DNA of 64,000 nucleotides from Candidatus Omnitrophota bacterium. GTDB taxonomy: Bacteria > Omnitrophota > Gorgyraeia > Gygaellales > Profunditerraquicolaceae. Positions within the stretch are counted from its first letter, which is position 1, and the number at the start of each line of letters is the position of its first letter. Positions 24,001 to 33,000 of this stretch are shown here, piece after piece. The DNA is taken from assembly GCA_030693145.1 (NCBI GenBank), contig JAUYBI010000041.1, positions 10,228-74,227 on the forward strand, given 5' to 3'. The translations under genes and the position numbers were made by a program. The notes below the pieces were generated by a model. The model saw only the letters and a list, made by a program, of their open reading frames with translations, did not search any database and was not told the origin of the DNA.

Positions 24001-27000
24001 CTGATGCCGCTACTGAAGTGGCAGAACATGAAGTAGATGCATTTTTTAGAAAAGTTAGTGAATATTTAATAGTAAGGCCTGCGGGAGATAATGTGACTAG
24101 GAGTGAGGACGGCGGCTCCTTTGAGCAGAAAGCAGTTGTTGGTCTGTTGAAGATTAATCCAGCCACTACTACCGCAGCTTGGAAAAAGCTAGAGGAATTT
24201 TCTAGCGTAATGAAAGAGCAGCGCATGAGCGATATGTTCGCTGACCCGCGGCGTTTTGATAAATATTCCATTCGCTTTGAGGATATGCTTGTGGATTATT
24301 CCAAGAACCGGATTAATCAAGAGGTAATAGATACTCTGCTTAGTTTAGCAGGAGAAGTTGGCCTTAAAAATGCAATCGAAGCGATGTTTACCGGCGTCAA
24401 GATTAATGAAACTGAAAACCGCGCTGTTTTGCATACTGCCCTGAGGAACCAATCCAATACACCTGTTTACGTTGATGGTAAAGATGTGATGCCGGCAGTG
24501 AATCGAGTTTTAGGGCAAATGAATGAGTTTTCGGCCAAGGTTATTTCCGGAGAGTGGAAAGGCTACACCGGCAAGGCTATCACAGATATCGTAAATATCG
24601 GTATCGGCGGTTCGGATTTAGGGCCGGTAATGATCACCGAAGCTTTAAAAGCTTATGCCGCGCGTAAGGATTTAAGGGTGCACTTTGTCTCTAATGTGGA
24701 TGGAACGCACATCGCGGAAACGCTAAACGGCCTTAATCCTGAGACCACACTTTTTATCATTGCCTCCAAGACCTTCACTACGCAGGAGACTATGACCAAC
24801 GCTAATACAGCCAAGGCTTGGTTCTTGAAAAACGCGGTAAACAAAGAACATCTAAAACTGCATTTTGTAGCGGTTTCCACAGCAGAAGAATTAGTTAAAG
24901 AATTCGGAATTGACACGGCCAATATGTTTGAATTCTGGGATTGGGTAGGCGGGCGTTATTCTTCCTGGTCGGCAATTGGCTTGTCAATCGCCTGCTATAT
25001 CGGTTTTGATAATTTTAAAGAGCTGTTCTCCGGCGCTCATGCTATGGATCTTCATTTCAGGAATACGCCGTTTGAGAGAAATATTCCGGTGATCCTAGCA
25101 CTTTTAGGTATTTGGTACAATAATTTCTTTAATGCCCAGTCGCATGTCCTCTTACCTTACGATCAGCACCTGCATCGTTTTGCCGCGTATTTTCAGCAGG
25201 GGGATATGGAATCAAACGGCAAGAATGTGGGTAGAGACGGCAAGCCAGTAGATTATCAGACAGGGCCGGTTGTCTGGGGCGAGCCGGGCACCAACGGTCA
25301 GCATGCCTTTTATCAATTGCTGCATCAAGGTACGAAATTGATCCCCGCGGATTTCATCGCCTTTGCCCAAAGGAGCGCTCAAAAAGAGTTCGATAAAGAC
25401 TATGATTTGAGGGAGCGTTTAGACATGCATCATAAAATATTCCTTTCCAATTTCTTTGCCCAGACCGAGGCCTTGATGCAGGGGAAGTCTACCGAAGAAG
25501 TCAAGAAAGATTTTGAAAAAGAAAATGCCAAGCGCAAAGAAAAGGGCCAGCTGGAATTAACCAATGAAGAAATATCCCGGCTTACGCCTTTTAAAGTTTT
25601 TGAAGGTAACCGCCCGACCAATTCTATCTTGGTTAAGAAACTTACCCCTCGCACGCTCGGTGTGCTCATCGCGATGTATGAGCATAAGATTTTCGTGCAG
25701 GGCGTAATCTGGAATATCTACAGTTTTGACCAGTGGGGTGTTGAGCTCGGCAAAAAACTTGCTAACAATATCCTGCCTCAGCTTGAGCCCGGAGTTGATG
25801 CCTCCAAACATGATTCCTCCACAACCGGACTTATTAATGCTTATAAGGATATGCTGGATGGTTCTAAGATTAATGTCCTTGATGAGGCATCTGGAGTTGA
25901 GAAGAAAGACGGCGGCTCCTTTGATGGTGGTTCACTTAGTAACAGCCTTGATAACTTTGCCGCCAATTTAATCGAATCTTTAGAAGAGAGAGCAAGGCAG
26001 GCTGGCTATTCTGTGGATAAAGATACAAAATTCTTTATCCTTGTGGGCGGCAATGTAAAAACCTCTCCTTCTTTTAAAATATTTAACCATCTTTTAAAGC
26101 TTGCCCAAGAGAATATAGTTTACCTTCCTTATGAAATCTCTTCAGAAAAGGAATTAGAAGAATTAACTCAGCTATTAAGAACCTGCCCGCGTTTGGTCGA
26201 GTTAGTAATAAGCGATCCTTATAAAGTAAGTGGGATTAAATATTTGGATGAGCTCTCAGTATTAGCAGAAAGAGCCCATGCAGTTAACAATATCGTTTTA
26301 AAGGATAATAAATTGTTTGGCTCTATGTTTGACGGTGTTGCATGGGTATATTGGTGGAAGATTATCTTAGGCCAAGGCTTGGATAATAAGAAGATTATTC
26401 ATTTGGGCGCAGGTGGAGTAGCAAGAGCCTTTGCCGCAGCAGTTGCTGAAGAGGCATCCAATGTGAAACTTGTTTTTACCGATACTAACGAAGAGCGTCT
26501 TTATGCTCTAAGAAATATTATAGAATCCTGGGGTAAGGATATTAAAGTTAAAATAATAAAAGTAGCGCCTGATCAAGAGTCCGGCGATTTAAATAAAGAG
26601 CTGACGGATGCTGATATTATTATTAATGGCACAGGGTTAGGGAAAAACAAAGGCAATATTTACGCTTATCCCAAGTTGGATTATACGAAATTAAAAGGAA
26701 AGGTTTGCATAGATTGGAATTATCGTCCAGCGGCAAAGAATCTTTTCTTAAAGTATTCCGAAGATAATGGAGCAACAATTTATAATGCTTTAGGATTTTT
26801 AATCACTGGTTTTTATTATACCTTCCACGCTATTTTGGATAGAAGAGGGGTTTTTGATTATAATAAGTTATTAAGTTTTGCAAAAGAAGACCCGATATTC
26901 AAAGAAGCTGCTGAGGTGGATTTTGAAGGCGATATAAGGTTTATTAAGGCAAAAGAAAGGTTAGCTGATTGGTTGCTTACTCTAAATAAGATGTCTCCGG

Positions 27001-30000: not shown

Positions 30001-33000
30001 ATGCCGCGCGCGATGATTTAAAAGTTCACTTTGTCTCCAATGTGGATGGCACGCACATCGCGGAAACCTTAAAAGATCTTAATCCCGAGACCACCCTTTT
30101 CATTATTGCTTCTAAAACCTTTACTACCCAGGAAACTATGGCCAACGCTAATACAGCAAAAGAGTGGTTTATAAAAAATGCGGCAGTCAACGAGAATCGA
30201 AATCGGGATTCTGCCGCGGCGAATATGTTTGAGTTCTGGGATTGGGTAAGCGGGCGTTATTCCTCACATCTAAAACTGCATTTTGTAGCGGTTTCCACGG
30301 CGGAAAAATTAGTTGAAGAATTCGGAATTAATACCGACAATATGTTTGAATTCTGGGATTGGGTAGGCGGACGTTATTCTTCCTGGTCTGTCATCGGCCT
30401 CTCTATCGCCTGCTATATCGGTTTTGATAATTTTAAAGAATTGCTCTCCGGCGCTCATGCCATGGATCTGCACTTCAGGAATACGCCTTTTGAGAAAAAC
30501 ATTCCTGTAATCCTGGCGCTTTTAGGCGTTTGGTACAATAATTTCTTCAGAGCCCAGTCGCACGTCCTTCTGCCTTACGATCAGCATCTGCATCGTTTTG
30601 CCGCCTATTTCCAGCAGGGCGATATGGAATCAAACGGCAAGAATGTGGGTAGAGACGGCAAGCTGGTAGATTATCAGACTGGGCCGGTTGTCTGGGGCGA
30701 GCCGGGCACCAACGGCCAGCATGCCTTTTATCAATTGATTCATCAGGGCACGAAATTGATTCCTGCGGATTTTATCGCCTTTGCCCAAAGAAGCAGCCAT
30801 GAGTTTGATAAATACGAAGAGTTAAAGGCGCGCTTAGACGAACATCACAAAATATTACTTTCCAATTTCTTTGCCCAGCCGGAAGCTTTGATGAAAGGTA
30901 AAACCGTCCAAGAAGTTGAAGAAGAATTTAGAAAAGAAAATGCCAAGTTAAAAGAGAAGGGTAAACCCGAATTAAGCGAGGAAGAAATCTCTCGGCTTAC
31001 GCCTTTTAAGGTCTTTACAGGTAACCGCCCGACCAATTCTATCCTGGTTAAGAAGCTCACTCCCTATACGCTCGGTATGCTCATCGCGATGTATGAACAT
31101 AAGATTTTCGTGCAGGGCGTAATCTGGAATATCTACAGTTTTGACCAGTGGGGTGTAGAATTTGGTAAAAAGCTTGCCAAAGGCATCCTAAACTTAGACC
31201 CCGATCATTATTTGGATCAGCTTGAGCCAGGAACTGTTGTAACCGGACACGACTCCTCAACCAATGGCCTTATTAATGCTTATAAGGATATGCTGGACGG
31301 TTCTAAAGACGGCGGCAATGTTACAGAAGAAAGAGAAATTTTGTTTCAATTTAGAAAGAATCACAAAATAAGAAAATATGTAAGATATCTGATGCGATTT
31401 TGTTTCGAGCAATTTGAGGTAAGGCGAGTTGATGTCAATAGGATGATTTATATTATTTTTCAATCAGAACACAGCAGTTTTGAAGGAGTTAGAGAAGCTC
31501 TTTATGAGGCTGGTTTTAATTGGAAAAATAAGGAAAATATTTACAACAAGATTTATAGCAAATACAGTAGAGAAACAGCGCCTTTTGTAAAATACAACAT
31601 TTTAAAAGAATATATTCAGCCAAAAGGATTTGGTTCAGATTCGGTGATTATAGACATAGGTTGTGGTGATCTTGCCATCGCAAAACAGCTTATTAAGGAT
31701 ATGCGCACGCGTATCCCTAAAGACTATTTACCTACAATATATGGTATAGATTTTCCAGAGCCGCCAAAAACAACAGGGGACGATAAGATTAAATACAAAC
31801 AGCAGAATGAAAATAATGCTGGTAGGGTTACGATGGACGAAGAGGTAAAGGCCGATAGGATATGGATAATTTCCGCATTGCATCATATGCCTAAAGAAGT
31901 AATGGCTTCTATTTTAAAAGAAGCTTACCGCTTACTTAAAGCTGATGGCGAATTAATCGTGTTTGAGGACGTTGTTTTGGAATCAAAAGAACCGAAATTT
32001 AATGAAAAGAAATTAGCTAAAGGCAGGGTAAATAAGCTTTCAGAGGAAGAGCGCAGGATTGCTTTTACTATCTTTGATTGGCACGCTAATTGCGTTGTCG
32101 GTGGGCATGGTTACGTGCCTATGCCGGGAAATTATTATACAGAAAATAAATGGATTCAGGTATTTTCTGAAGCGGGATTCAGCGTAGAAGATTCAGATTA
32201 TATCGGTGTATATAAGAAAAAGTTTAGCAATTTGCCGCATTCAATCTTTATATTAAAAAAGAAAGACGGCGGTAAAACTGGAAAAGAGCTTGTCCAAAAT
32301 TTTAATAAAAGCTATGAGGAGTATTTGCAAAAAGTTGAACATGTTGAATTATCTGAATCGGTTTTGAAAGAAGTAGCCAGAAAAATAAGAAATAACCAAA
32401 AGGAAAGCAAAAACAAGATTTATGTTGTGGCAATCGACGGTAATTCAGGGGCTTTTAAGAGCACTGCCGCAAAGAAGATTGCTAGGTTAATCCGGAAATC
32501 AGGAATTAGAGCAATAGTGATTCATCGGGATTGGTTTATTGATGATCGGGATGCCAGATATGAAAGAATAGATGAAGCCCTGAAAAACAAAGAACTTATT
32601 TATAATGATGAAGAGATTTATCTACGGAAGCCCAAATTCGTTCATGAAGTATTAAGGAGTCTAAAAAGATTGAAGAGAAATTTAAACAAAGAAGTAAGGC
32701 TAAAATTTACCGAACTTTACAGTAAATACAAGGGAGGAAAATTAGTAAAGAAAGTATCCAAAAAAATCTCAAAAGGAACAGTTGTAATCATAGAGGGAAA
32801 TTACTTGTTAAAGAAAGAATGGCTTAAATATTTTGATTATAAGATTGTTATGTTGGCAAAGCCGTCGATTGGCCTTGAGCGCAGATTAAAAAGGGATTCG
32901 CATACTCACAAAGACGAAGTAAAGAAGATGTTTTTAAGGGTTAATACTCCTTCTTATTTTAAATATTTAAGGAAAGAAAAACCAGAAGTCGCGGCTAACC

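Follow-up and report, generated by a model that had tools for sequence, protein, structure and literature searches.

The DNA considered here comprises 64,000 nucleotides (nt) of a Candidatus Omnitrophota contig (JAUYBI010000041.1, positions 10,228 to 74,227 of the forward strand; GenBank assembly GCA_030693145.1), hereafter referred to as the window, and it is occupied by a single giant reading frame. This paper describes two modules of glucose-6-phosphate isomerase (PGI) within that frame, and a recurrent Asp-Gly-Gly (DGG) mark that brackets these and other modules. All coordinates refer to the plus strand of the window. Frame 3 of this strand is open from nt 3 to nt 63998 and encompasses 21,332 codons without a stop, as compared with 712-2294 stops in the other five frames; since it is open at both window ends, the window represents the interior of a gene of at least 21,332 codons. 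Rfam and tRNA scans of the window revealed no RNA genes.

Pfam scanning showed that approximately 30 families, HEAT among them, tile the frame without a single dominant repeat. The first part contains, in order, B12-radical SAM, DegT aminotransferase, APS kinase, PHP, CofD, PGM I-IV and PGI domains; these are followed by shikimate-DH-like, 6-phosphogluconate dehydrogenase (6PGDH), 6-phosphogluconolactonase (6PGL), a second PGI, methyltransferases, a PRK-like kinase, ARMT1 and a eukaryote-type hexokinase, and finally by histidine phosphatase, amidohydrolase, HUMPS and SIS domains, after which comes a poorly annotated half with a few transmembrane-like segments. The approximately 10 segments of this kind in the window are all located within amino acids (aa) 13821-21071. 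The frame would thus encode complete sugar-phosphate enzymes in series, including PGM, PGI, 6PGDH, 6PGL, hexokinase, and the HPS and PHI enzymes of the ribulose-monophosphate pathway.

In these respects the window resembles the giant proteins of Omnitrophota: a single open reading frame (ORF) well over 10,000 codons, many Pfam families of which none dominates, and a sugar-metabolism core (PGM, PGI, hexokinase) accompanied by methyltransferases, radical SAM and HEAT domains. Moreover, relatives of several of its modules are Omnitrophota proteins. In the searched text of a recent description (bioRxiv 10.64898/2026.06.07.730766), "multi-enzyme metabolic" giants of this phylum are reported to reach 147,155 aa, 65% of the Pfam-positive long proteins (at least 10,000 aa) to repeat a Pfam within one chain, and one giant to carry nine hexokinase copies; repetition of a Pfam within one polypeptide is "the rule" according to these authors and, as in the window, stems from old rather than recent duplication. 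Likewise, the searched text on the Archaeovorins mentions PGI and PGM domains (bioRxiv 10.1101/2023.11.21.568195). The window thus matches the interior of a giant, multi-module Omnitrophota-type gene, a class that has already been published, and the comparison covers the gene interior, as the N-terminal peptidase, the SecA-like domains and the overall transmembrane topology of published giants belong to regions beyond the window. Giant multi-enzyme ORFs with repeated domains being already described, the PGI pair is one more instance of them.

PGI module 1 spans nt 24108..25916 (aa 8036-8638; Pfam envelope nt 24294-25835) and PGI module 2 spans nt 29484..31316 (aa 9828-10438; Pfam envelope nt 29640-31274). 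Both match the PF00342 profile over its full length (1-486 of 486), at aa 8098-8611 with E=1.9e-239 and at aa 9880-10424 with E=2.8e-227, and with scores of 795.6 and 755.5 bits, respectively, at a cutoff of 22. The same string, GACGGCGGC, stands at both ends of both modules (nt 24108, 25908, 29484 and 31308). Global alignment over 579 residues gave 82.6% aa identity, and 81.8% nt identity over the same codons, confirming the original prediction of two homologous PGI copies that share about 80% of their nucleotides and are bounded by identical sequence. The homology between the copies ends at most 12 codons from the DGG marks on both sides; beyond the marks, the upstream flanks displayed marginal similarity (70 of 2000 shuffles) and the downstream flanks none. 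The number of synonymous substitutions per site (dS) between the copies amounted to 0.74 and the ratio of the non-synonymous to the synonymous rate (dN/dS) to 0.15, which indicates that the duplication is old and that both copies are under purifying selection, and relative-rate tests with five outgroups and a consensus detected no significant rate asymmetry between them.

The two copies differ by a 24-codon insertion in module 2 (nt 30195..30266), which is absent from all 44 PGI homologues compared. It consists of the residues NRNRDSAAA followed by a 15-residue repeat of the PGI signature that is located 117 nt downstream, and it directly precedes an intact 39-codon unit (nt 30267..30383) that is predicted to carry the functional GGRYS signature. 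In module 1 the corresponding 39-codon segment, with the PGI signature and its active-site Arg, is single and unduplicated (nt 24849..24965). An independent repeat finder retrieved all three of these signature copies (family D6). Within its 45-nt core the insertion deviates from the native downstream copy at 5 positions, of which 4 are synonymous and one changes Gly to Ser, whereas its first 27 nt (NRNRDSAAA) agree at 17 of 27 positions with the HLKLHFVAV codons at the head of the following unit (binomial P=2e-5). This level was reached by only 5 of the approximately 64,000 27-mers in the window, i.e., the insertion, the two HLKLHFVAV sites and two unrelated sites. The changes within these 27 nt are mostly second-position T to G or C, so that Leu, Phe and Val gave way to Arg, Ser and Ala.

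The simplest history for the insertion, judged from these alignments, would start with a 39-codon (117-nt) tandem duplication covering a beta-strand, a helix and the signature loop, after which the redundant first copy would have lost 15 codons and its redundant strand codons would have been recoded from hydrophobic to polar. The insertion would then represent the degraded first of two in-register head-to-tail copies, and the net length of 39 - 15 = 24 codons is what was found. It had been proposed that copy 2 carries an in-frame tandem duplication of 25 codons created by slippage. The tandem origin and the preserved frame hold, but the length is 24 codons, and a simple repeat of 25 was abandoned in favor of the 39-minus-15 model as Tandem Repeats Finder detected no repeat at the insertion; the 5 differences in the 45-nt core and the heavy recoding of the first 27 nt are at odds with a recent slippage event. 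An origin of the 5' part from EFGI codons in another frame was also considered and rejected, since it yields a match of 10 of 12 nt only, which is weaker than the in-register model.

According to the original prediction, frame preservation is selected even where domain integrity may not be, implying that PGI module 2 might be a decaying, non-functional duplicate of which the frame alone is maintained. The position of the insertion beside the signature region fits such decay, as does a slightly higher number of lineage-specific substitutions in copy 2 (e.g., 34 versus 20 with P0003 as outgroup, P=0.08). In the AlphaFold2 models, moreover, the native signature loop scored about 61 in module 2 and about 72 in the module 1 control by the predicted local distance difference test (pLDDT), and this soft loop was at first taken for a disruption; the control model of copy 1, however, dips likewise. 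Against decay stand the dN/dS of 0.15, the 4 synonymous versus 1 non-synonymous changes in the duplicated core, and the active-site residues. S159, K211, T215, G295-R297, E382, H413 and K562 (copy 2 numbering) are invariant in all 46 PGI sequences, the window copies included; within the GGRYS signature G295, G296, R297 and S299 are invariant, and both copies thus retain the phosphate-binding Ser/Thr, the GGRYS arginine, the catalytic Glu and His, and the C-terminal Lys. At columns that are at least 95% conserved, each copy has 2 departures.

The predicted structures, which are models of monomers, also argue against decay. Module 2 aligns end-to-end with PGIs in the Protein Data Bank (PDB) at 1e-224, with 56-62% identity to solved PGIs, and its model (pLDDT 89.6; predicted template-modelling score 0.91) displays a complete fold that superposes on PDB entry 3hjb with a target-normalised template-modelling score of 0.95 and a root-mean-square deviation of 2.3 Å. 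Module 1 was modelled at pLDDT 91.0, with its DGG-bearing ends (residues 1-8 and 598-603) below 50. The PDB alignment shows the insertion as a gap in the loop that links a helix to the strand HFVAVST, and its residues 238-261 are modelled as helical at pLDDT 63-69, suggesting a tolerated surface excursion of 24 residues that leaves the predicted PGI fold intact, instead of the disruption for which a check in a structural model had been suggested. Apart from being embedded in a giant ORF, from being present twice, and from the 24-residue insertion before HFVAVST in copy 2, the modules resemble canonical dimeric PGI (Vibrio cholerae 3hjb, mammalian PGI) in full-length match, invariant active-site residues and predicted fold. 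Decay of module 2 is accordingly considered very improbable, and on the basis of sequence and models both modules are old in-gene paralogues that have apparently been kept as functional enzymes. That the second copy or the extra segment would be an assembly artefact is more improbable still, to the point of being negligible: the copies differ at 18% of the aligned positions, the internal repeat at 5 of 45 nt in addition to its recoded 27-nt part, and this divergence excludes a collapsed or expanded assembly repeat. Furthermore, the window contains no long repeats of 100% identity and the frame is open throughout.

The string that bounds the PGI modules is part of a pattern that extends over the window. 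DGG is the commonest tripeptide of the frame (53 occurrences versus 5.8 expected) and its sole strongly enriched short motif. Its main nucleotide spelling, the 8-mer GACGGCGG, occurs 30 times, as compared with 0.55 expected from dinucleotide-preserving shuffles, and all 30 copies are in the same reading frame with none on the minus strand, which excludes chance. These copies start at nt 10389, 14925, 21807, 24108, 25908, 29484, 31308, 32265, 34449, 35802, 37800, 38607, 39588, 41976 and 44211 in the first half of the series, and at nt 45987, 47178, 47952, 48738, 50142, 50334, 50925, 51165, 51903, 52461, 55524, 59898, 60069, 61815 and 63576 in the second half; the remaining 23 DGG sites are spelled with other codons. 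None of the 53 sites falls within any of the 33 Pfam envelopes, which occupy a combined 26% of the frame; for the 30 GACGGCGG sites this gives P=8e-5. DGG brackets PGM, both PGI copies, hexokinase and the amidohydrolase next to HUMPS at no more than 10-15 residues from their envelopes. A non-canonical DGG spelled GATGGAGGT at nt 42396 probably lies inside the HUMPS domain, past its partial Pfam envelope.

The flanks of DGG are more hydrophilic than average (P=0.017), rich in Ser and devoid of Trp and Cys, and in 18 of the 53 sites the mark is preceded by K or R at position -1 (P=1e-4); upstream of DGG no other consensus was detected, the weak hydropathy peaks at -7 and -13 being not significant. 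The DGG-bearing ends of the PGI models are disordered. At four junctions (nt 50334, 50925, 51903 and 54597) the mark is part of a longer block, (D/G)RS(A/T)R(L/F)-DGG, in which about 26 nt are conserved amid flanks that cannot be aligned. This extended block, CGCTCAGCGCGCCTTGACGGCGG (RSARL-DGG), occupies nt 50319..50341 and recurs at nt 50925, 51903 and 54597.

Relatives of the window were collected as a sample rather than a census. A word-indexed protein search with window positions 48738-54605 retrieved no homologue, which proved a false negative, because an exhaustive HMMER search with an overlapping DGG-dense stretch found 156 relatives, 34 of which at E<=1e-30; negatives of the indexed search are thus unreliable for sequence of this kind. 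The HMMER-matched ranges fall within DGG-delimited units, and the unit at aa 16778-16975 has free-standing counterparts of 146-190 aa that align with it end to end. Units that match whole free-standing proteins, together with the absence of DGG from Pfam envelopes, substantiate the earlier claim that DGG is situated at module boundaries. The accompanying claim that DGG-to-DGG units behave as duplicable cassettes is supported by the PGI pair, the homology of which is confined to the DGG interval, but not by other paralogue pairs in the window (49% and 27-30% identity), which do not both start and end at DGG.

Among the relatives the same boundaries are occupied by different motifs. At the module end at aa 18199 (...YNSIE.G.F.LL) the window has RSARL-DGG, P0130 and P0137 have SSP, P0128 has GARLA, and P0129, P0139 and P0158 terminate. 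Similarly, the PGI modules of the closest homologues P0003, P0004 and P0100 are flanked by RSExR where the window has DGG. A single mark dominates each long relative: DGG in P0135 (9 copies, 1.7 expected), SSP in P0137 (30 copies, 1.7 expected), G[AS]R[LM]A in P0142 (18 copies), and R[SA]ExR in P0186 and P0208 (8 and 11 copies). In P0135, encoded on locus L008, DGG again brackets Pfam domains, and on locus L007 RSExR is common to three consecutive multi-module genes and was found in none of the five ordinary genes checked downstream. The Omnitrophota relatives include P0100, P0123, P0130, P0137 and the MutS gene adjoining P0135, and some of them are ORFs that fill their whole contig; one relative is labelled Margulisiibacteriota and the record of locus L001 Clostridia. 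The window itself contains no marker gene. The module content differs between relatives. Searches of contig collections yielded only L001 and one unrelated locus among genome contigs, only matches of 27-33% among metagenome contigs, and none among viral contigs. Taken together, punctuation looks to be general in this protein family, with a motif that differs by lineage.

Proteins of this organization, consisting of complete units arranged head to tail with short conserved marks at their joins, are familiar as polyproteins. It is well established that C39 peptidases and papain-like viral proteases cut after Gly-Gly, and that ubiquitin precursors are processed in the same way. The window shares with polyubiquitin and ubiquitin fusions, LXGG papain-like viral sites and C39 double-glycine leaders that the short conserved mark at the joins ends in Gly-Gly, and the marks are lineage-specific as are viral protease sites; as for C39-type sites, Gly-Gly at the unit boundaries coincides with the termini of free-standing homologues. 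By analogy, the giant product may be a polyprotein from which a dedicated endopeptidase would free the modules by cutting at or after the Gly-Gly of [K/R]-Asp-Gly-Gly (mostly GACGGCGG). In related lineages the same boundaries carry SSP, GAR[LM]A or RSExR instead, presumably fitted to the enzyme of the lineage concerned. A short invariant motif, its coincidence with the termini of free-standing homologues, disordered flanks and lineage-specific alternatives are together best accommodated by a polyprotein with processing sites. The explanation that we favor for the window as a whole, with modest confidence, is therefore an Omnitrophota-type giant that constitutes a DGG-punctuated polyprotein and contains two old, working PGI paralogues, one with a tolerated insert; that the marks are cleaved, and by which enzyme, we infer only, with about an even chance of being correct.

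Several observations weigh against processing as the function, or the sole function, of the marks. No peptidase domain was detected by Pfam scans in the 21,332-codon frame, and none was present in the first 1,700 residues of the L001 product or in P0135. The leader-like upstream pattern of C39 substrates (hydrophobic residues at -4, -7 and -12) is absent at DGG, and some module joins, e.g., those between the shikimate-DH-like domain and 6PGDH and between 6PGDH and 6PGL, have no DGG. Besides the missing leader, LR/LX consensus and protease, the window differs from the Gly-Gly polyproteins listed above in that its units are ordinary metabolic enzymes and in that its mark has a conserved nucleotide spelling, which those systems do not need. 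Within the 53 DGG sites, the codons GACGGC are expected 3.3 times from codon usage alone, a naive figure that makes the excess look too large, as GAC and GGC are already favored for D and G when G follows; after correction for context about 14 are expected, as compared with the 30 observed (P=2e-6). All 9 nt agree among the four PGI boundaries, whereas the proportion of synonymous differences (pS) inside the copies is 0.47 (P of about 0.02). In L008, 6 of the 9 DGG sites are spelled GACGGCGG (P=1e-4), and the ordinary genes in 20 kb of flanking sequence contain no copy of the 8-mer. Such conserved spelling is not predicted by a pure protease site, and it counts against a role in proteolysis alone.

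The lack of a protease in the regions scanned is compatible with marks that are never cleaved and serve as linkers or hinges between modules, in which case the giant would be one membrane-tethered multi-enzyme scaffold and the two PGI modules the two halves of a dimer in one chain. PGI is an obligate dimer, so the presence of two copies per chain would make sense without cleavage, and the hydrophilic, disordered flanks as well as the many transmembrane helices and HEAT scaffolds of published giants agree with this arrangement. An invariant Asp-Gly-Gly preceded by K or R, however, is more than a passive linker requires, and such a linker would leave both the lineage-specific fixed motifs at the same boundary and their coincidence with the true termini of free-standing homologues unexplained. 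Uncleaved linkers are consequently regarded as a serious yet rather unlikely alternative to the polyprotein.

The spelling of the marks raises the question whether the nucleotide string is primary, with DGG merely as its translation; the string might be a core for recombination or gene conversion by which entire modules would be gained, duplicated or lost without breaking the frame, or a DNA or RNA signal for a processivity or translation factor required on very long transcripts. The excess of one spelling extends to four genomes, as in addition to the window and L008 the SSP mark of L009 is spelled AGC-TC[GA]-CCG at 13 of 30 sites (P=6e-15), and the mark of L010 is spelled GGCGCSCGGMTGGCG, in which Arg is never AGR (P=2e-4) and Leu never TTR. 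Moreover, the codon choices at D and the first G of DGG are correlated (odds ratio 7), which, with the identity of the PGI boundaries, the 26-nt junction block amid unalignable flanks, the confinement of the L008 8-mer to the multi-module gene, the variation of module content among relatives and the arrest of PGI homology at the marks, could be anticipated for such a string. On the other hand, the occurrence of all 30 copies in one frame and the 23 synonymous DGG sites indicate that the peptide itself is selected; the string lacks an extended flanking consensus, a local structure signal and copies on the minus strand; no recombinase was seen in the window; and the other paralogue pairs do not break at DGG, while the third positions of the RSExR marks in L007 are variable. 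A primary role of the nucleotide string thus appears doubtful.

The possible functions of the string are narrowed by several candidates that were tried and rejected. An internal ribosome-binding site with a start codon after the mark is not supported, since an in-frame start 4-12 nt downstream is found at 2 of 30 sites as compared with a background of 13%. Local RNA structure at the marks was dismissed because the flanking windows equal background and the effect of centring disappeared when the 8-mer was planted in random windows (p=0.35). A genome-wide DNA motif of the Chi or uptake type is incompatible with the lack of minus-strand copies, the single frame and the absence from 20 kb of ordinary L008 genes. 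A fossil Shine-Dalgarno (SD) sequence obtained no support from the start-codon analysis, and the marks of other lineages are not SD-like. Finally, a reloading site resembling that of RfaH/ops (GGCGG...) would leave the strict frame unexplained, and no TAG follows the motif.

Processing, hinge and nucleotide-signal functions are not mutually exclusive. It can tentatively be proposed, as something more speculative than the polyprotein itself, that the genes have a punctuated format in which a lineage-specific, in-frame mark with maintained spelling (GACGGCGG in the window and L008, AGCTCRCCG in L009, GGCGCSCGGMTGGCG in L010) is both a processing site and the core at which recombination or gene conversion duplicates, inserts and removes modules in frame; metabolic enzymes would then be organized as in-frame cassettes. 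Integron cassette arrays offer a parallel in their short strand-specific nucleotide core at unit boundaries, the variable content of units and the presence of one unit twice, but the units of the window all belong to one ORF and share its frame, the core encodes a peptide that is itself conserved, and neither attC-like hairpins nor an integrase was found in the window.

For the published giants, C39 and S8 peptidase domains have been described in full-length proteins, cleavage points were stated to be unknown, and the absence of such knowledge blocked structure prediction by parts, as far as the searched text goes (bioRxiv 10.1101/2023.11.21.568195). The words motif, junction, linker and "cleavage site" do not occur in the searched text of this description or of that of the Omnitrophota giants (bioRxiv 10.64898/2026.06.07.730766), and literature searches returned, in the texts covered, no report of junction motifs or defined cleavage sites in these giants. 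Although the kind of gene is known, the punctuation thus seems to be a new feature of it, as do the lineage variants and the nucleotide spelling. They bear on the question whether a bacterial giant protein, with its 10,000 to about 150,000 residues, works as a single chain or as cut pieces: a mark at the ends of free-standing homologues, encountered every 0.4-2 kb approximately, provides concrete candidate cut sites as well as a simple rule for splitting giants for annotation and structure prediction. If the marks are cleaved, these genes would be cellular polyproteins that supply parts of central metabolism in fixed stoichiometry; a signal residing in the nucleotide string would instead point to a new mechanism by which very long genes are built or expressed. 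A small, clean example of how such genes grow and tolerate accidents is offered by the duplicated PGI with its repaired insertion.

Several further observations concern the marks and their relatives. The RSxR of the extended junction block resembles the RSExR of other lineages, and its ARL resembles GARLA. A 102-nt repeat with 91% identity (nt 12519-12620 and 15753-15854; family D7) starts 6 nt ahead of a DGG, greatly exceeds the surrounding sequence in similarity, and at its first site forms a 31-residue mini-unit that is closed by a second DGG at nt 12618. At nt 51903-52010 and 63111-63200, DGG is immediately followed by a signal-anchor-like sequence, i.e., a basic stretch and then a hydrophobic helix, so that these modules look as if they once had, or are acquiring, a free N-terminus. 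The giant ORF of L001 contains no DGG; it carries another double-glycine motif, SF(D/T)(S/T)AFGG, at three positions (approximately 7130-7160, 12975-13010 and 14110-14140 of the L001 locus), of which the window holds one 12-residue counterpart at aa 13190. Many relatives (P0124, P0127, P0135 and P0172) have in common, behind a signal peptide, a conserved N-terminal domain of about 330 residues that matches no Pfam family, and also a conserved C-terminal module that starts with GGID(L/F)R.LPIVT just past the last punctuation mark; either of these could belong to a processing or export apparatus.

With respect to the remaining modules, the two PGI copies are separated by a three-enzyme unit (nt 25923..29483) that comprises the shikimate-DH-like, 6PGDH and 6PGL domains without internal DGG, and of which the shikimate-DH-like part (nt 25950-27200) is 70% identical to a module in the relative L001. 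In the region nt 28770-31316, 6PGL is located directly 5' of PGI copy 2 with DGG alone between them, and free-standing two-domain 6PGL-PGI proteins with the same order are present in the database (P0049, P0050 and P0096), which suggests that part of the module order of the giant may stem from an older fusion gene. The eukaryote-type hexokinase (PF00349 and PF03727; nt 34449-35810) forms a unit that is flanked by GACGGCGG at 10-11 residues from the Pfam envelopes, and at nt 41976-44210 a HUMPS/OMP-decarboxylase-like module adjoins a SIS-domain module, representing the two enzyme types of the ribulose-monophosphate pathway. PHP-domain modules at nt 8472-10019 and 17028-18608 constitute a second paralogue pair with 49% aa identity over about 520 residues, the homology limits of which miss DGG at three of the four ends. 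Finally, in 2-kb bins across the window (nt 1-64000) the GC skew is positive, at about +0.2 in most bins and about 0 to +0.1 in several, and the AT skew is positive in all bins but one, indicating that the coding strand is purine-rich overall; the skew is lower over enzyme modules of higher conservation, the PGI copies among them.

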